From Candidatus Saccharimonadota bacterium (GTDB lineage: Bacteria > Patescibacteriota > Microgenomatia > UBA1406 > GWC2-37-13), in the NCBI GenBank assembly GCA_016432445.1, contig CP066689.1, positions 600,001 through 632,000 on the forward strand: DNA of 32,000 nt, read 5' to 3'. Numbering within the stretch: position 1 is the stretch's first letter; each line of letters starts with the position of its first letter. The translations under genes were made by a program, and so were the position numbers. Under the pieces are notes generated by a model that worked only from the letters and a program-made list of their open reading frames with translations, did not search any database and was not told the DNA's origin. Shown here piece by piece: positions 624-32,000 of this stretch.

Positions 624-1532
624 TTAAGAAGTTTTCTTCATTTTTTGAAGCCGGTCGGCAAATAATTGTGCCCAACCAGCACCTTTATAAAAAGCAATTG
701 ATCCAACTCCAAAAAGTATGTCGAATCGATAGGGGAATAACGGATAAGTAAGTAAATACAATATTCTGCCTATGTGAGTGTCTAACCCTACATGAACGAC
801 CTTTTTTATATTTTTTCCTTCTGCAATATCATAAATTACTTGAGCCACTTTTTCTGGTTTTGTTCCAAAAGTATTTCTCCACCAGCTGGTTATTTTTTCA
901 GCGGCCTTTATCTCAGCGGGATTTTTTCCTTCAGTCCAACTCGCGCGGTCGATCCTAGTTATAGTGTTTCCAGGACGAATATCTACTAATCTAACGTTAT
1001 AATTCTTCATATATGATTTTTTTGTTCTTCTTGTAACTCTTGAAAGACGGATTTTAGAGTCGTTATAGCCGCCATGATGAAGATCTGGCCAGTAACGTTT
1101 AGCTGAGGTTACGTTAATTATAGTTCCTCCACCATTTTGATCCATAATTCCTGAAGCGGCTGCTGTAATAAGAATAGGCGCGTATAAATTTACTGCAAGC
1201 ATATCTTCCAAAGCTTTTGTAGGCGTGAGATCTTTACCATACATTGTAGATAATGCGCCTTTAGTCATGATTCCTGCGGCGTTAACTACAATATCAAGTC
1301 TTCCCGACTCTGCGCTTTCATTAACCATGCTGATAACTTGGCAATGATCAGTCACATCAATTTTTAAGGGTCTAATATTTGAATATTTAGGTTGAGAGAA
1401 AACTTCATGAATAGCTGGGTCTTTATCGGCTGCATAAACTGTATATCTTCTATCTTGAGCAAATTTTTCAGCAGTGGCTTTTCCAATCCCGCTGGCTGCG
1501 CCAGTAACGATTGCAACTTTTCTTTCAGACAT
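624..1532 (-). CDS. short-chain dehydrogenase/reductase (SDR) family oxidoreductase
   Basis: N-terminal VAIVTGAASGIGKA (TGxxxGxG Rossmann motif) and YNDSK (YxxxK catalytic motif). It carries a C-terminal extension of about 80 aa. Confidence 0.85.
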   Translation of the reverse strand: MSERKVAIVTGAASGIGKATAEKFAQDRRYTVYAADKDPAIHEVFSQPKYSNIRPLKIDVTDHCQVISMVNESAESGRLDIVVNAAGIMTKGALSTMYGKDLTPTKALEDMLAVNLYAPILITAAASGIMDQNGGGTIINVTSAKRYWPDLHHGGYNDSKIRLSRVTRRTKKSYMKNYNVRLVDIRPGNTITRIDRASWTEGKNPAEIKAAEKITSWWRNTFGTKPEKVAQVIYDIAEGKNIKKVVHVGLDTHIGRILYLLTYPLFPYRFDILFGVGSIAFYKGAGWAQLFADRLQKMKKTS

Positions 1533-1538
1533 TTCAAG

Positions 1539-1547
1539 ATTATATCA
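1539..1547 (-). promoter_or_regulatory. extended -10 promoter (TGaTATAAT) 6 nt upstream of the SDR ATG
   Basis: The minus strand reads TGATATAATC-TTGAA-ATG. There is no Shine-Dalgarno, and the geometry fits a leaderless transcript. Confidence 0.45.
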
Positions 1548-1563
1548 CAGATAGTTATAGGAT

Positions 1564-1641
1564 AAAAAAAAGACCTATGGGGTGGAAAAAATCAGCCAGC
1601 GGCTGATTGATGACAACATTGTCACCAGTCCATAGGTCTTT
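1564..1641 (-). terminator. multi-hairpin 3' element of cassette A ending in U8 (complex intrinsic terminator or 3'-UTR RNA)
   Basis: Outer stem agacctatgg (1571-1580) pairs with ccataggtct (1630-1639). It encloses hairpins at 1591-1607 and 1611-1624. On the minus strand the structure is followed by T8 (1564-1571). Confidence 0.55.
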
Positions 1642-1695: not shown

Positions 1696-2109
1696 TCAGC
1701 TTGTGTGATTGACTCCGTTTTGCCGTATCACAGTGATAGCGGCTGCAGCTGCTAAAAGGATTGCTCCTGTAAGCAGAGACAGCATTATTAGGGTCTTAAA
1801 TGTGCTAGGTGACACGTAAGGTACGATTGTTACGACCAGCATGGGGAGTGCAATGAGCACGAGCGTTCCCAATCTGATCAACCTTGGGCTTCCGTCGGAT
1901 AATAGGATTGCGATTAAAAAAGTTCCAGCCACTATGATGGATGACACGATCAGGCTAAGGATTCTCCCAAGCGGTGAGCTTTCGTCTGAGAGGCCTGGAC
2001 CCTGGCTGATGTTTAGTGAGATAGCTCCTACAGTGACGACTATCAGGAGCAGACCAATAAGAGCGTTAAAAACCAAGGTTGTTTTGTCGATTGACGCTAA
2101 ACGTTTCAT
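1696..2109 (-). CDS. small integral membrane protein, 137 aa, about 4 TM (cassette A gene 3)
   Basis: The ORF is almost entirely hydrophobic segments. It runs co-directionally 4 nt after the 68-aa gene, and its G+C is higher than the flanks. Confidence 0.55.
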   Translation of the reverse strand: MKRLASIDKTTLVFNALIGLLLIVVTVGAISLNISQGPGLSDESSPLGRILSLIVSSIIVAGTFLIAILLSDGSPRLIRLGTLVLIALPMLVVTIVPYVSPSTFKTLIMLSLLTGAILLAAAAAITVIRQNGVNHTS

Positions 2110-2113
2110 TGCA

Positions 2114-2320
2114 CTAGCCTCCTTTTTCAGTTGTTTGTCTTTTCGGCAGTCCGAACGTCATGATTCCTGGCCCGGATATTCCAATGATAGCTCCGAAGCC
2201 AAAAACCAAAGCCGCAGTAGAGTGATCCGTAACATTCCAGGCTACCATAACGACTGATGTCACAACAATTGCCAAACCCAGAATTGCTACGATCCCCCCA
2301 GCATAGAACCACTTTGACAT
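2114..2320 (-). CDS. small membrane protein, 68 aa, 2 TM (cassette A gene 2; paralogue of 4055..4276)
   Basis: GGAGG Shine-Dalgarno upstream. An ungapped alignment to the 73-aa ORF shows MSKW.Y, GAI.G..GP and GLP.RQTT. Confidence 0.65.
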   Translation of the reverse strand: MSKWFYAGGIVAILGLAIVVTSVVMVAWNVTDHSTAALVFGFGAIIGISGPGIMTFGLPKRQTTEKGG

Positions 2321-2392
2321 GATCTTTCCTCCTTCTTATTTTAATCAATCTCCAAGTGACCGCCGAGCAATTTTCAGTTGTGAGTTTTTATG

Positions 2393-2647
2393 TTAGATCT
2401 CGATCCTCCTTACTGGAATGTGAATGCTTGATGCTAGGAAGGTTACGCCGATTGAACCGATTAGGATACCTCCATAAAACAAGATGTCTGACAAGAGTTT
2501 GAACGAGATAACCAGAACATAGTTACCTCCCAATGATATGAACAGAGGATAGTCATTAGATAGTATAGGCAAGAAGAAAATAGATACAATTACTAGCGCC
2601 GTCCCAACTGCGGTTAGAGATGCCCCAATTTTTTGAGCGATAGACAT
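2393..2647 (-). CDS. small membrane protein, 84 aa, about 3 TM (cassette A gene 1; paralogue of 4294..4566)
   Basis: Hydrophobic ORF with an AGGA Shine-Dalgarno. It shares FFL..DY...YVL...Y.G.L..IG with the 90-aa ORF. Confidence 0.6.
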   Translation of the reverse strand: MSIAQKIGASLTAVGTALVIVSIFFLPILSNDYPLFISLGGNYVLVISFKLLSDILFYGGILIGSIGVTFLASSIHIPVRRIEI

Positions 2648-3843: not shown

Positions 3844-3933
3844 AAAAAAAAGACCTATGGTTTTCCGTTGAGTAAATGCACTTTATTGTGCACCGGCGAC
3901 TATATAGTCGTCTAAACGGTTGACCATAGGCCT
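3844..3933 (-). terminator. multi-hairpin 3' element of cassette B ending in U8
   Basis: Outer stem agacctatgg (3851-3860) pairs with ccataggcct (3924-3933) and is perfect on the minus strand only, via one G-U. Inner stem ccgtt/aacgg, with hairpins at 3877-3892 and 3895-3912. T8 follows on the minus strand (3844-3851). Confidence 0.55.
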
Positions 3934-3961
3934 TTAAACCTATCCACACCTGCGCGGATAT

Positions 3962-4051
3962 TTAGTTTGCCGTGACAGACCGCACGGCCGCAAAAACGAC
4001 TCCCACGACTACGACGAAGCCAATAAAAAGGCGAAGAAGAATCTCGTCCAT
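3962..4051 (-). CDS. 29-aa single-TM micro-ORF, possibly a deletion remnant of the 137-aa gene
   Basis: Translates to MDEILLRLFIGFVVVVGVVFAAVRSVTAN. It occupies the gene-3 position of cassette B, and its C-terminus resembles ...AAAAITVIRQNGVN of the 137-aa protein. Confidence 0.3.
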   Translation of the reverse strand: MDEILLRLFIGFVVVVGVVFAAVRSVTAN

Positions 4052-4054
4052 TTG

Positions 4055-4276
4055 TTATGCTCTTTCTTCAGTGGATTGAGTGGTTTGTCTTGGCGGCAGT
4101 CCGTGAACTATCAGCGCTGGGCCAATAAGACCCAGTATGGCTCCTGCAGCGAGGAACCAAAAAGAGAGCAGGTGCTCAGCTGGGTTTGAGAGCAGTATAA
4201 CAATGGACACAGCTATGCATACCAAACTGAGAGCAATGGTGGCTCCCGCTAAGTAGTCCCATTTAGACATGATCAT
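4055..4276 (-). CDS. small membrane protein, 73 aa, 2 TM (cassette B gene 2)
   Basis: GGAGG Shine-Dalgarno. Paralogue of 2114..2320. Confidence 0.65.
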   Translation of the reverse strand: MIMSKWDYLAGATIALSLVCIAVSIVILLSNPAEHLLSFWFLAAGAILGLIGPALIVHGLPPRQTTQSTEERA

Positions 4277-4293
4277 GATCTAATCCTCCTTTC

Positions 4294-4566
4294 TTAAGAG
4301 TATTCAGACTTGCGTTTATTCAGTTGTGAGTTGTCTTTCCTCTTTCCTTTCTCCACGATGAATAAACCGATCACCGTGAGCAAGACTCCTGCATAGAGCA
4401 GGGTATTCAAAAAGTGTCCATAAGGCAGAATTAAAACATAGGGTTCCACTGTGAACAATATTGAATTGTAGTCACGTACTGTAAATAGAAAAAAGGCAGA
4501 TAACAACAGTAGTATCGATCCGCTTGATACCATAGCAATACCAATGACCAGAGTCTTCGTCACCAT
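4294..4566 (-). CDS. small membrane protein, 90 aa, about 3 TM (cassette B gene 1)
   Basis: Hydrophobic ORF and paralogue of 2393..2647. The C-terminal basic tail corresponds to non-coding spacer in cassette A (shared ctcacaactgaa). Confidence 0.6.
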   Translation of the reverse strand: MVTKTLVIGIAMVSSGSILLLLSAFFLFTVRDYNSILFTVEPYVLILPYGHFLNTLLYAGVLLTVIGLFIVEKGKRKDNSQLNKRKSEYS

Positions 4567-4593
4567 CTCGATTCATCCCTTCGTTTATTTTTG

Positions 4594-4734
4594 ATCCGCA
4601 CAATTTGTCAAGGTTCGAAGAAATCTGCAAAAGAAACTTCATCAGGCAGCTATTGTCTAAATCCATTTATCTCACAGCCTTCTTCAAAATGAATTATAGC
4701 AAATTCATTTCGAGCCTTTTATAGCAACACTTTC
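4594..4734 (-). repeat. 141-bp perfect direct repeat, copy 2 (promoter plus 5' leader of cassette B)
   Basis: Identical to 2674..2814. It ends 5 nt before the ATG of the divergent gene at 4740. Confidence 0.95.
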
Positions 4735-6658: not shown

Positions 6659-6753
6659 ATTTTTTAAAAAAACTGATAATGTTAAAAATCTTAATAATAA
6701 AGATTAAGAAGTCTCCAAGAAATCAGTAAGAAGGATGTAAGAGTTTACAAAAA

Positions 6754-7437
6754 TTATTTTATAACGAGAGTTATTTCTCCTCTAAAAGATTTATTTATCA
6801 ACTCTGAAGGTTTACCGCGGACAACTTCCTCGAATTTTTTAGTGATTTCACGGGCAACTGCCACATCTGCAGTAGGGTTAACTTCATTTAATATCTCTAA
6901 CGTTTTATTGACTCTATGGGGCGAGTCGTAAGCGGTAAAGATTGTTTCAGGAATGATTTTTTTTATTTCAAGCATTTTACGGATGAGTTTAATTATTTCA
7001 TTATTTTTTTTAGGAATAAACCCGACAAAAAACATATTTCCAGGGTTAAACCCAGATAAAACAACGGCAGTTGTAGAGGCAGTAGGGCCAGGAATAACTG
7101 TAAAAGGAATCTTTTCTTTGATGACATGATTGACTAAAAGAAAGCCGGGATCGGATATAAGAGGCAAACCTGACTGAGAGATAAGCGCGACTTCTTTATT
7201 TTCCTTTAATAAATCTAAAACTTCCGGTAGTTTTTCAAATTCTTTTTCTTTATAATAAGAAATTAATCTTTGAGAAGATTTAGTTGCAAGACCGAAAAGG
7301 TCTTTTATTTTTAAAATTAAAAGTCCGGTAGAACGGGTGTCTTCGGCTAAAATATAATCAACAGAAGTTAAAGTTTTTGCCTGTCGCAAAGACAAGTCTT
7401 CTAAATTACCAATTGGAGTGGCGACTATATATAGCAT
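6754..7437 (-). CDS. rsmI: 16S rRNA (cytidine1402-2'-O)-methyltransferase
   Basis: MLYIVATPIGNLEDLSLRQ...ILAEDTR N-terminus, typical of RsmI and the tetrapyrrole-methylase fold. Confidence 0.88.
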   Translation of the reverse strand: MLYIVATPIGNLEDLSLRQAKTLTSVDYILAEDTRSTGLLILKIKDLFGLATKSSQRLISYYKEKEFEKLPEVLDLLKENKEVALISQSGLPLISDPGFLLVNHVIKEKIPFTVIPGPTASTTAVVLSGFNPGNMFFVGFIPKKNNEIIKLIRKMLEIKKIIPETIFTAYDSPHRVNKTLEILNEVNPTADVAVAREITKKFEEVVRGKPSELINKSFRGEITLVIK

Positions 7438-8076
7438 ATGGAACAGATAATAGCTTTCTTAACAAACCTTATTATACAGGTTATTGAAAAAAGCGGTTAC
7501 GCAGGCATTTTTATACTGATGGCGGCAGAATCCGCTCTTATTCCAATTCCTTCTGAGGTAACTATGACTTTTGCCGGTTACCTTGCGTCAATCGGGAAAT
7601 TCAATATTTATATGGTGATTTTTATGGGTGCGTTTGCAAATTTGGTAGGTTCGATCGTTGCTTACTGGCTGGGTTATTGGGGAGAAGACGCTTTTATCAG
7701 AGACGTTATTAAAAAATACGGTAAATGGGTTTTTATTACAGTTGATGAGTATGAGAAATCTGAGAGATGGTTTCGTAAATATGGGGAAAAGATAGTTTTC
7801 ATTACGCGCGTTTTACCGATAATAAGAACCTTTATCTCACTGCCTGCAGGAGTAGCCAAAATGAATTTTTGGCGTTTTTCGGTCTATACTTTTGTTGGTT
7901 CATTAATTTGGAGCGCACTTTTGACGTATATAGGTTTTGTACTTGGAAAAAACTGGCACTCTTTAGAACAATATTACCGGAAGTTTGAGTATGCAATTGT
8001 TGCCGGAATAGTAATTTTGGTTATCTACTACATCCACCATAAATGGAAAAAAATCACAAAAAAATTGCACCCTTAA
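7438..8076 (+). CDS. dedA: DedA family membrane protein
   Basis: The motifs ...AESALIPIPSEV... and ...RVLPIIRTFISLPAGV... are characteristic of DedA/SNARE-associated proteins. Confidence 0.85.
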   Translation: MEQIIAFLTNLIIQVIEKSGYAGIFILMAAESALIPIPSEVTMTFAGYLASIGKFNIYMVIFMGAFANLVGSIVAYWLGYWGEDAFIRDVIKKYGKWVFITVDEYEKSERWFRKYGEKIVFITRVLPIIRTFISLPAGVAKMNFWRFSVYTFVGSLIWSALLTYIGFVLGKNWHSLEQYYRKFEYAIVAGIVILVIYYIHHKWKKITKKLHP

Positions 8077-8285
8077 CCTGTTAATTCAGAATTACCCCTT
8101 TGAGCGGGGCGGAGACCAAAGTCTCCAAGGGCGCGTGGCACAGTGAAACCGGAAGCCTTGTTGTTCGATTGCTAGCCATCACGCCATATGCGGTAAGCTG
8201 ACCAACCTATAAAGCACAAAAAGCTTCCTGCGAATACCCACCAGTCGGGGTGAAAGTATGCAGATAGCACTCCCGCCACTCTAAA

Positions 8286-8477
8286 CTATGGTCTTGGGTG
8301 GCGATGATGGTCTTCAAACCGCCTGAAGTCGCTGGTTGGTTTTCTGGTGAGCGCAGCCGTAGCAATCAGCACTAAGCCGATAATTACGAGGGCGCCTGCC
8401 TCCAGGCTAATTTGACGCTGAGATGCTATGAGTGCTAATCCTGCGAAAAACAAAATGACGCCTGTAATCTGTAGCAT
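8286..8477 (-). CDS. small membrane protein, 63 aa, 2 TM (cassette C gene 2)
   Basis: Two hydrophobic helices plus a basic/His-rich tail. AGGAG Shine-Dalgarno. Same length and architecture as 8506..8697. Confidence 0.55.
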   Translation of the reverse strand: MLQITGVILFFAGLALIASQRQISLEAGALVIIGLVLIATAALTRKPTSDFRRFEDHHRHPRP

Positions 8478-8505
8478 GTCTTTCTCCTCCTTTAACCAAG
8501 ACTTT

Positions 8506-8697
8506 TCATCTCGAGTTCTGGCGTGCGTGGTCGGACTTACGGTAATCGGCCACTGGTCCTGCTATAAGATAGTGGACCACAATCATGGCTACGCCTACTA
8601 ATGCTACTACAATTGCTCCGCGTCGACCTGGCATAAATAAAAATACCAGGTTTGCAACCCCAACGATCAGAATGACTACTCCTACTGTTTTGAGCAT
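8506..8697 (-). CDS. small membrane protein, 63 aa, 2 TM (cassette C gene 1)
   Basis: Two hydrophobic helices and a polar tail. AAGGAG Shine-Dalgarno. It lies downstream of a diverged copy of the cassette A/B leader. Confidence 0.55.
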   Translation of the reverse strand: MLKTVGVVILIVGVANLVFLFMPGRRGAIVVALVGVAMIVVHYLIAGPVADYRKSDHARQNSR

Positions 8698-8792
8698 CTG
8701 ACTTACTCCTTCTAAATATTTTTTTTGAGCATAAGCTCTTTAAACTCACAAATATTTATGAGCTAAAAAAGCTTATGCTCTTTACTTTCCAC

Positions 8793-8884
8793 CAATTTGT
8801 CAAAGTTCAAAAAATATAATAAGCCAAAAAAGGCAAGCTATTAGCATTTTTTACTTATTTTATCAGCCTATATTATACCAAATT
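8793..8884 (-). promoter_or_regulatory. diverged third copy of the cassette promoter/leader (extended -10 TGgTATAAT at 8880..8872)
   Basis: Blocks shared with 2674-2790: caatttgtcaaRgttcRaaRaaat, ggcaRgctatt, tttatc..agcct and attataSca aatt. Confidence 0.5.
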
Positions 8885-8940
8885 GCTATGGGTTAGTGTT
8901 TTTTTTCCAAAAAAAGGTCATAGATAAGATGTACAAATCA

Positions 8941-17947: not shown

Positions 17948-19308
17948 TTGTTAAGCAAAAAACGCTTCGTTACTACTATTGGGTTGCTGTAGAATTTGCC
18001 AAAAAACACCTTAAGTTGATTGTTGTGAGTTTCTTTCTAAGTATAGTTGCAATTGTCAGTTTTATATCTTTTTCTCCATATATTATAAATTTTGCTACTG
18101 CAAAAAATGAAATTATAGGTGTGGTGGGAACAGGTCAAATTAATAATTTACCTGATTTTATTCTTTCGAAGATATCGAATGGCTTAATTTTTATAAATGA
18201 GAAAGGACAAATAATTTCAGTTTTAGTAGAGAAATGGGATCAAAGCAAAGACGGTAAAACTTATCACTTTTATCTTAAAAAAAATATTTATTGGAATGAT
18301 GGAAGTCTTTTTACAGCCAAAGGCATTAATTACGATTTCAAAGATGTAGAAATGAAAATTATTAACGATTATGAGATAGAGTTTCAACTTAAAAAACCGC
18401 TTCCGATATTTCCCACTTACCTAACGAAACCGCTTATTAAATATCCTTTCGTCGGAGTTGCAGGTCTTTACAAAGTTGACAGTTTTAAGTCGCAATATGG
18501 GAATTTAAAAGAGATCTACTTGAGTCCTAATAAGAGTAATTTTCCTTATTTAGTCTATAAGTTTTATGAGAACGAAACGAAAACTATAAATGCCTATAAA
18601 CTAGGGGAAGTTACACAAATAGAGGTAACTAGACAGTCGGTTTTGGATTACTTTGCAAGCTGGAAAAATACAGTTATTGACAAAAACGTTGATTATACGC
18701 GTTTGATGACTTTATTTTTTAACATGAACAGTGATTACTTAAAGCAAAAAGATATCAGAAAGGCGATTATAAGCGCTATTTCAAAAAAACAGTTTAAAGA
18801 TGAAGGAGTTGAGTCTATTGGTCCTATCCCGCCAATATCATGGGCATACAATCTAAATCTTAAAAAAACAGGTTTTGATCCAGAAATGTCAGATAAGATT
18901 CTAAATAAAAGCATGGAAAGCAGTAAATCAGCTACTTTACAAATTGCGACATACTACGATTATTTATATATAGCTGAAGCCATTAAATCTGATTTAGAGA
19001 AAGTCGGATTAAACATTAAAATTAATACTTTATCTTATAATCAGCCATCTTCATTCGATATGCTTTTAGCATATTGGAAAGTGCCTCTTGATCCAGATCA
19101 GTATTACTTTTGGCACTCAACTCAGAAACAGGGCAACATAGCAAATTACAATAATATTAAGATAGATAAATTACTTGAGGATGGCCGGAGTGTAACTTCA
19201 GTTGAAGAAAGAAAAAAAATTTACTTTGATTTTCAGAGAACTATTCTTGATGATGCTCCTGCTTATTTTATCTTCTACCCCTATATTTACACCATCCGAC
19301 GGAAGTGA
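17944..19308 (+). CDS. ABC-transporter family-5 (peptide/nickel type) solute-binding-like protein with an N-terminal TM anchor
   Basis: C-terminal ...YYFWHS...NYNN.KIDKLLEDGR....ERKKIY.DFQ..ILDDAP..FI.YP, typical of SBP_bac_5. Confidence 0.65.
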   Translation: MIVKQKTLRYYYWVAVEFAKKHLKLIVVSFFLSIVAIVSFISFSPYIINFATAKNEIIGVVGTGQINNLPDFILSKISNGLIFINEKGQIISVLVEKWDQSKDGKTYHFYLKKNIYWNDGSLFTAKGINYDFKDVEMKIINDYEIEFQLKKPLPIFPTYLTKPLIKYPFVGVAGLYKVDSFKSQYGNLKEIYLSPNKSNFPYLVYKFYENETKTINAYKLGEVTQIEVTRQSVLDYFASWKNTVIDKNVDYTRLMTLFFNMNSDYLKQKDIRKAIISAISKKQFKDEGVESIGPIPPISWAYNLNLKKTGFDPEMSDKILNKSMESSKSATLQIATYYDYLYIAEAIKSDLEKVGLNIKINTLSYNQPSSFDMLLAYWKVPLDPDQYYFWHSTQKQGNIANYNNIKIDKLLEDGRSVTSVEERKKIYFDFQRTILDDAPAYFIFYPYIYTIRRK

Positions 19309-19414
19309 TATAATCTATAATTAGATCTTCGATCTTAGATATTGGATCTTAGATAATAAAAACGAACCTAATCTAACATCTAACATCTAATATCTAAGAA
19401 CTAAGATCTAAAAT
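19306..19414 (+). promoter_or_regulatory. promoter (TGaTATAAT) plus a ~100-nt leader with GATCTTAGAT repeats upstream of tRNA-Leu(UAA)
   Basis: The 15-mer TGATATAATCTATAA starts at the TGA stop of the upstream gene. An inverted homologue lies at 22058..22172. Confidence 0.5.
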
Positions 19415-22057: not shown

Positions 22058-22172
22058 TATATTGATCTGATCTTAGATGTTAGTTCTTGGATCTTTAATT
22101 AAACTGAGAAACAATATCGAGTATCTAAGATCAAAGATCTCAGATCTAAGATCCAGTTTATAGATTATATCA
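22058..22172 (-). promoter_or_regulatory. promoter (TGaTATAAT) plus a ~100-nt leader with GATCTTAGAT repeats upstream of tRNA-Leu(GAG)
   Basis: The reverse complement of 22158-22172 is TGATATAATCTATAA, and its TGA is the ruvB stop codon. The leader shares GATCTTAGAT x2 and AAGAACTAA.ATCTAA with 19321-19414. Confidence 0.5.
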
Positions 22173-23749: not shown

Positions 23750-23859
23750 TTGATAGTAATGATAACATTCATAGATTCACGATTCAAGATTTATGATTCA
23801 AGAATGAAGCATTAAATATATTTACCTCGTGAATCCTGAATCATGAGTCGTCAATCGCA

Positions 23860-31065: not shown

Positions 31066-32000
<935 letters not shown>

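Follow-up and report, generated by a model that had tools for sequence, protein, structure and literature searches.

Elements A and B, two branched structures at the 3' ends of paralogous small-membrane-protein operons in the window (the whole 32-kb stretch of DNA analyzed here), are probably compound Rho-independent terminators that also protect the 3' end of the operon transcripts. We observe that the two elements agree in anatomy, position and orientation, that both fold into stable structures, that the operons that end in them are paralogous, and that their topology recurs at other gene ends.

Element A occupies positions 1564 to 1642 on the minus strand and consists of a 13-bp closing stem, two inner hairpins and a U8 tail. 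Pattern search and folding place its 5' arm (GAAAGACCUAUGG) at 1630 to 1642 and its 3' arm (CCAUAGGUCUUUU) at 1568 to 1580, the latter overlapping the U-run at 1564 to 1571. Within the stem lie inner hairpin 1 (UGGUGACA-AUGU-UGUCAUCA, 1608 to 1627), identified by folding, and inner hairpin 2 (AUCAGCC-GCU-GGCUGAU, then U6; 1585 to 1607), identified by folding and by a scan for T-runs. Element B (3844 to 3935, minus strand) has a 13-bp closing stem with one G·U pair, a 5-bp inner stem, two hairpins and U8; the same two methods locate its 5' arm (AAAGGCCUAUGGU) at 3923 to 3935 and its 3' arm (ACCAUAGGUCUUU) at 3849 to 3861, with the U-run at 3844 to 3851. Its inner hairpins 1 (3897 to 3910) and 2 (3875 to 3894) both fall within the inner stem formed by 3915 to 3919 and 3865 to 3869.

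The closing-stem arms common to both elements are AAAGACCTATGG and CCATAGGTCTTT, with one A-to-G change in B. On the plus strand, AGACCTATGG is found at 1571 to 1580 and at 3851 to 3860, and its reverse complement is exact at 1630 to 1639 and carries one mismatch at 3924 to 3933, so that the shared outer stem described in the original prediction (1571 to 1639 and 3851 to 3933) is recovered where it had been placed. The pairing reaches 13 bp in both copies through AAA/UUU and a terminal pair, and the stem contains five G-C pairs. The eight U's that had been noted on the minus strand are likewise present in both copies; the run takes in the last base of the 10-nt arm, leaving seven U's after that arm, and three to four of the eight are able to pair with the upstream (G)AAA.

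With respect to folding, the minimum-energy structures on the minus strand reach −36.4 kcal/mol for element A (z = −7.1) and −39.1 kcal/mol for element B (z = −7.5), and none of 200 shuffles is as stable. Minus-strand folding, which had been proposed as a check, therefore returns a structure that is stable beyond a simple hairpin. Both minimum-energy folds contain the closing stem and two inner hairpins, with the extra 5-bp inner stem only in B. The folded interior measures 49 nt in A and 61 to 63 nt in B, in agreement with the earlier description of the elements as far more elaborate than a normal terminator. These folds, together with local alignments against shuffles (P = 0.21 with both interiors in the same orientation and P = 0.59 with one of them reverse-complemented), also bear out the claim that each stem encloses two hairpins whose sequences are unrelated between the copies.

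The conservation between A and B is restricted to the arms and the tail. A common block of 18 to 21 nt, made up of the 3' arm, U8 and flank, is detected by blastn-short within the 32-kb window (E = 5e-5). Identity extends to 20 of 21 positions across the 3' arm, U8 and the three bases flanking them and to 11 of 12 positions across the 5' arm, and arms and U8 together are conserved at 33 of 35 positions, whereas the interior, the 3' UTR next to the element and the downstream flank show 41 to 47% identity, which is the random level. The conserved positions are all base-paired, while unpaired and interior positions are not conserved. These results confirm that elements A and B are real and homologous at their arms, beyond chance, and the arms are probably common to both because the operons are paralogues (common descent). 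As a separate observation, the two 3' regions have in common a small minus-strand hairpin, GCACAAU(GG/AA)AGUGCA (13 of 15 positions, P of about 0.009), which lies inside element B (GCACAATAAAGTGCA, 3877 to 3891) and outside the closing stem of element A (GCACAATGGAGTGCA, 1648 to 1662); its displacement hints that the 3' region may have been rearranged around the arms.

Operon A (1696 to 2647, minus strand) comprises three small membrane-protein genes of 84, 68 and 137 aa and ends in element A; operon B (3962 to 4566, minus strand) comprises paralogous genes of 90 and 73 aa plus a 29-aa ORF and ends in element B. Each belongs to a minus-strand unit (A, 1564 to 2814; B, 3844 to 4734) with the order leader, three tightly spaced genes, short 3' UTR and element. 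The encoded proteins of both operons are small and hydrophobic, the gene order is common, and identity between A and B is 37% for P2 and 27% for P1; judged by their sequences, the operons are true but distant paralogues. A plus-strand gene separates the two cassettes. Element B sits between convergent genes. Downstream of element A, the extended −10 of an SDR gene (TGATATAAT, 1539 to 1547, minus strand) lies 17 nt past the U8 and 6 nt before the ATG, so that element A sets operon A apart from the SDR promoter. The short distance between this extended −10 and the SDR ATG (1530 to 1547, minus strand) in itself suggests that the SDR mRNA may be leaderless, starting right after element A.

The cassette proteins appear to be ORFans. 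No P2 relatives beyond the A and B copies were found in an indexed search of 5.8 billion proteins or when 1.84 billion representatives were searched exhaustively with an HMM, and comparison of the cassette proteins with Pfam, PHROGs and NCBIfam returned only sub-threshold holin-like matches. A distant blastn comparison of the cassette region with phage records gave no match. The neighboring genes are housekeeping genes (uvrABC, ruvAB, enolase, PPDK and secG), and the nearest SDR homologues are found in Patescibacteria MAGs at 65 to 68% identity, in loci that show no synteny and no cassettes. We also observe that, compared with the bacterial model, the 5' part of the 23S rRNA gene (31070 to 32000) contains inserted segments of about 50 and 89 nt; 23S rRNA insertions are often seen in CPR bacteria. 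The SDR homologues, the rRNA insertions and the housekeeping genes together identify the window as chromosomal Patescibacteria (CPR) DNA.

Structures of the same general kind are found elsewhere in the window, where every T-run of at least six was checked for a preceding long-range stem. A third small-membrane-protein operon (8286 to 8697, minus strand) is followed by a branched 3' structure at 8058 to 8134, with an 8-bp closing stem (8127 to 8134 with 8067 to 8074), three inner hairpins and, after a 2-nt spacer, U7 at 8058 to 8064; neither the sequence of this element nor the proteins of its operon show a detectable relation to those of A and B. An outer stem that encloses a hairpin and precedes a U-run is also seen after the gene ending at 6754 (about 6660 to 6720) and at 574 to 646. 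In the scan of T-runs, inner hairpin 2 of element A together with its U6 qualifies on its own as a canonical terminator. A consensus short-loop terminator scan does not report elements A and B, and over the first 10 kb it finds 7 sites against 8.0 expected, which is no excess. Large compound structures with a long-range stem and a U-run thus look like a recurrent feature of gene ends in this genome, with the most elaborate ones belonging to the three small-membrane-protein operons.

Several further observations concern these regions. The third operon with its flanks (8058 to 8900, minus strand) holds two 63-aa ORFs and a possible 35-aa GTG ORF in a GC-rich patch of 46 to 54%, and the GC content of the coding parts of all three small-membrane-protein operons (1650 to 2250, 3900 to 4350 and 8100 to 8700) is 45 to 54%, compared with about 30 to 40% around them. 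The third-operon leader contains a 31-nt palindrome within 8727 to 8780 and the motif TTGACAAATTG (8793 to 8803), which is also present in the A and B leaders (2681 to 2691 and 4601 to 4611). Farther along the window, two long hairpins of GATCTTAGAT-like repeats, with arms of 27 to 34 nt, lie at 19306 to 19414 and 22058 to 22172; both follow a promoter-like sequence (TGATATAATCTATAA) and precede tRNA genes on opposite strands, and the plus-strand hairpin folds at −32.1 kcal/mol (z = −5.8). A palindrome with 41-nt arms, made of GATTCA-type repeats, is found at 23780 to 23857.

The third-operon element bears on whether the interior of A and B matters at all, since the branched interior could be the product of neutral loop growth on a plain terminator stem, by template-switch or slippage insertions in a palindrome, in which case the likeness between A and B would be coincidental. 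A random 50- to 60-mer often folds into one or two hairpins, and when inner hairpin 1 of A is aligned with that of B, 12 of 20 positions match, a level that we estimate from the alignment to be within chance given the palindrome constraint; a covariation test, for which 130 of 500 shuffles do as well, has no power with two homologous copies only. However, each interior, when folded alone, has significantly more structure than expected from shuffling (z = −3.0 to −4.0; no more than 2 shuffles in 200 do as well), and the third operon shows the same closed multi-hairpin topology in unrelated sequence. We therefore consider neutral loop growth unlikely.

The original prediction had assigned the elements to minus-strand RNA on the strength of the single difference in the B stem, which is indeed A·C on the plus strand and G·U on the minus strand (one copy has AU and the other GU at pair 10/88). 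This argument carries almost no weight, since any single transition in a Watson-Crick pair gives G·U on one strand and A·C on the other, and only one substitution is involved. Furthermore, the two strands of A and B fold about equally well (plus versus minus, −38.3 versus −35.8 kcal/mol for A and −37.1 versus −36.4 kcal/mol for B), and G·U pairs on the minus and plus strands number 5 versus 3 for A and B together and 8 versus 3 when the third-operon element (8058 to 8134) is included. The orientation itself is nevertheless plausible on other grounds. The T8 tail is present on the minus strand only, the corresponding plus-strand tails being CGATTTT in A and AAACC in B, and the 5' arm begins 53 nt (A) or 26 nt (B) past the last minus-strand stop codon. 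The third-operon element is strand-specific, with −32.2 kcal/mol and three G·U pairs on the minus strand versus −25.6 kcal/mol and none on the plus strand. Given the one-sided U8 tail, the gene context and the 6.6 kcal/mol by which the third-operon element favors the minus strand, A and B most plausibly act as minus-strand RNA.

Several features argue for termination. In both copies a stem with G-C pairs is followed directly by the U-tract, on the same strand as the operon and downstream of its last stop codon, with element A preceding the promoter of the next gene and element B preceding a convergent gene. Strong terminators typically possess an upstream A-tract able to pair with the first part of the U-tract, and A and B resemble strong intrinsic terminators in the G-C pairs at the stem base, the U8 directly after it and the upstream AAA complementary to the first U's. 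Their location right after the last operon gene and ahead of the next promoter or convergent gene is also that of intrinsic terminators. Copy A, with its second hairpin and U6, would offer two successive stop points in the manner of tandem fail-safe terminators, although its second terminator is nested inside the first and does not follow it. Against the reading as terminators, the short-loop criterion of about 3 to 8 nt that describes canonical terminators does not fit an interior of 49 to 63 nt with two hairpins and a three-way junction. In addition, structure alone would allow compensatory changes in the arms, yet the arm sequence is near-perfectly kept; unlike in intrinsic terminators generally, the closing-stem sequence is near-identical even though the proteins are only 27 to 37% identical. 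Near-identical arms would thus call for recent homogenization or for sequence-specific recognition, and homogenization of two short arms without the interior between them is awkward.

In the proposed protection of the transcript, A and B would be comparable to known stabilizers of mRNA 3' ends, such as the enterobacterial REP/BIME palindromes and the stem-loop known as the 'positive retroregulator' at the 3' end of Bacillus thuringiensis cry. Like these, A and B are large, stable 3' stem-loops that would block 3'-to-5' exonucleases. In contrast to REP, which occurs in hundreds of dispersed copies of conserved sequence, A and B are two copies sharing their arms only, with no other copy found.

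From these features we infer termination, stabilization and the reason for the conservation of the arm sequence, as follows. Once RNA polymerase has passed the last gene, the inner hairpins would fold first and, by keeping the 49- to 63-nt interior compact, would hold the arms close to each other; in copy A, inner hairpin 2 with its own U6 might already stop some transcripts. The emerging 3' arm would then close the 13-bp stem, whose base (AAAGACC/GGUCUUU) abuts the U8, and the transcript would be released. The finished RNA would end in a compact three-way junction resisting 3'-to-5' exonucleases. Over evolutionary time the interior, subject to a need for compactness only, would have turned over in sequence, whereas the arms would have been held by strong selection on the long-range helix or by homogenization as in the leaders, the non-coding ends of the paralogous operons being kept or homogenized in the same way as the 141-nt leader. 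The G·U pair in B would be an expected, tolerated intermediate.

The leader referred to here is a promoter/leader repeat present at the opposite end of each cassette. Copy A (2674 to 2814) and copy B (4594 to 4734), both on the minus strand, are identical at 141 of 141 positions and carry an extended −10 (TGCTATAAT, at 2773 to 2781 in copy A). Set against proteins that are only 27 to 37% identical and other non-coding DNA that is no more alike than random sequence, this identity speaks for a recent gene conversion or for a portable promoter-leader module. The repeat has no Rfam match and the fold of the 5' UTR is not significant (z = −1.6). A 23-mer of the leader is absent from the JGI metagenomes and IMG/VR, and a spurious 39-aa ORF inside the leader, looked up as a way of finding other leader copies, led to none on record.

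At the promoter-distal edge of the leader, the same-population contigs that could be read across it (L010, L012, L016, L017 and L019 to L021) all differ from the window: after ...ACACTTTC they continue with 22 more common bases (AACTCCAGAGGTTGATATTTTA) and then with 16 or 21 unique bases. The window accordingly lacks 38 nt at copy A (2814/2815) and 43 nt at copy B (4734/4735), both gaps starting at the same repeat position. These gaps may stem from parallel deletions, from an event specific to this site, or from an artifact of assembly.

Two further sequence similarities within the operons may be functional. In the 3' UTR of A, AUCCGCACAAU (1656 to 1666) can pair over 11 nt without a mismatch with AUUGUGCGGAU, which lies close to where the 5' UTR ends (2674 to 2684; P = 0.0005 versus shuffles), and at the homologous site of B (AUCCGCGCAG, 3950 to 3959 versus 4594 to 4604) ten pairs are kept through two G·U wobbles; this complementarity may reflect an interaction between the 5' and 3' UTRs, or a DNA-level inverted repeat flanking the coding block. 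Between P1 and P2, both operons contain an identical 14-mer, AACTCACAACTGAA (2373 to 2386 and 4319 to 4332, minus strand), which is non-coding in A and in B falls within the coding sequence of P1; the third gene of A is preceded by a related sequence, ACAACTGAA. The 14-mer may be a signal for RNA processing or for translational coupling.

The conservation of primary sequence in the arms also raises the question of whether the elements are RNAs recognized by sequence, either a stable 3'-UTR-derived sRNA of about 80 to 100 nt or a platform for protein binding or processing, in which the stem and U8 would be recognized and the hairpins would serve as a scaffold. Arms and U8 stand out from a random-level background, the three-way junction is very stable (z of about −7), and the semi-conserved 3'-UTR block just upstream of the element complements the 5' UTR, perfectly over the 11 nt in A. 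The long U-tail fits as well, since tails of at least 7 U are characteristic of Hfq-binding sRNAs in E. coli (PMC5558911). On the other hand, every conserved position is paired, which leaves no conserved unpaired seed, and the interiors are unrelated. Rfam returns nothing for the elements at gathering threshold, the best match at E ≤ 10, on the plus strand, being Chlorobi-RRM, whose 19 bits fall short of a threshold of 45. The third operon, moreover, has the topology without the sequence, which argues for a structural role. A function as a sequence-recognized RNA is, in our judgment, quite unlikely.

A further point against such an RNA is that no additional copy or relative was found in the collections searched. 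The arm pair AAAGACCTATGG-N40-70-CCATAGGYCTTT is absent from IMG/VR and the JGI metagenomes, and among 185,579 GTDB species genomes it occurs at one site, in a Defluviitaleaceae MAG, which we rejected as a relative of A and B because it is an unrelated perfect hairpin. A covariance model built on the two copies, in line with the covariance search that had been suggested, detected no third copy in the 32-kb window or the searched loci (8 sources); a 22-bit match in L013 was also rejected, as its location is within a coding gene and it appears to be a chance match. Across both elements, Logan contigs of the same population, which come from a series of sequencing runs, show 100% identity and consequently carry no polymorphism information on A and B. 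The A and B arms are thus found in only two copies across the window, the searched loci and the public collections, and the recurrence of the stem elsewhere, whose absence the original prediction had named as a refutation, was not found in the window (32 kb of a source genome of about 1.1 Mb), the same-population contigs, the GTDB species genomes, the JGI metagenomes or IMG/VR.

The arrangement of conserved outer repeats around a variable center, at the 3' end of a cassette, also invites a reading at the level of DNA, as an attC-like recombination site or cassette boundary, or as a foldback or MITE-like repeat with the arms as 12-bp terminal inverted repeats. A and B resemble integron attC sites in being imperfect palindromes with these features that fold as single strands, and the equal folding of the two strands is as expected for a DNA palindrome. 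The opposite cassette end is formed by the 141-nt identical repeat, and the 38- and 43-nt indels in the same-population contigs fall exactly at the edge of that repeat, so that cassette borders do vary in the population. Unlike attC, however, the arms AAAGACCTATGG and CCATAGGYCTTT lack the R''/R' cores, with no GTT/AAC and no RYYYAAC/GTTRRRY core sites at their ends, and the window contains no integrase, attI or cassette array. No transposase or other recombinase was found in the 32 kb either. Each cassette carries its own promoter, a plus-strand gene lies between the cassettes, and the asymmetry of the U8/A8 tract, present on one side only, is what would be expected of a signal in RNA. The 3' elements are invariant in all population contigs, and there are no target-site duplications or direct repeats flanking the arms.

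Palindromic repeat families provide a second comparison at the DNA level. Pneumococcal BOX elements have the structure boxA-boxB(n)-boxC, and BOX and MITE families are multi-copy, with middle modules conserved within a family. A and B share with such palindromes the complementary conserved ends around a variable middle and an intergenic position near gene ends, but they form a pair at homologous sites, their middles are unrelated, and their conserved ends are very short (12 to 13 nt). Two copies in homologous position and the same orientation are sufficiently explained by common descent without mobility, and we regard a DNA-level element as highly improbable. The alternatives that had been put forward alongside the original prediction, namely an sRNA, a protein-binding RNA or a recombination site, accordingly gain no support from the analysis: we find no conserved unpaired segment, no Rfam family, no further copy, and no recombinase in the window.

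In a broader reading, fast-evolving ORFan membrane-protein cassettes would sit in a constant frame formed by the closing stem with U8 on one side and the 141-nt leader on the other, and the branched junction would act as a specific signal; the junction might then be recognized by a protein, act as a processing signal, or mark a boundary of homogenization or exchange. If true, the junction would belong to a class of 3' structures, linked to the small-membrane-protein operons of Patescibacteria, that has not been described. We consider it very unlikely. The support obtained extends to termination only, and in the sequences searched the recurrence of arms and U8 is confined to two paralogous operons.

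Compound termination with transcript protection is, as stated above, the reading that we favor, and the element is unusual in form and probably ordinary in function, with no new element class on present evidence. A literature search on branched terminators and on termination in Patescibacteria returned nothing specific. If the favored reading is true, A and B would illustrate the use of compound, multi-branched terminators to mark gene ends in a very small, AT-rich Patescibacteria genome. Standard terminator finders would miss such ends, which would matter for operon prediction in these genomes. The ORFan membrane-protein operon pair, whose regulatory ends are frozen while the proteins diverge, would furthermore be a pattern of note in episymbiotic bacteria.
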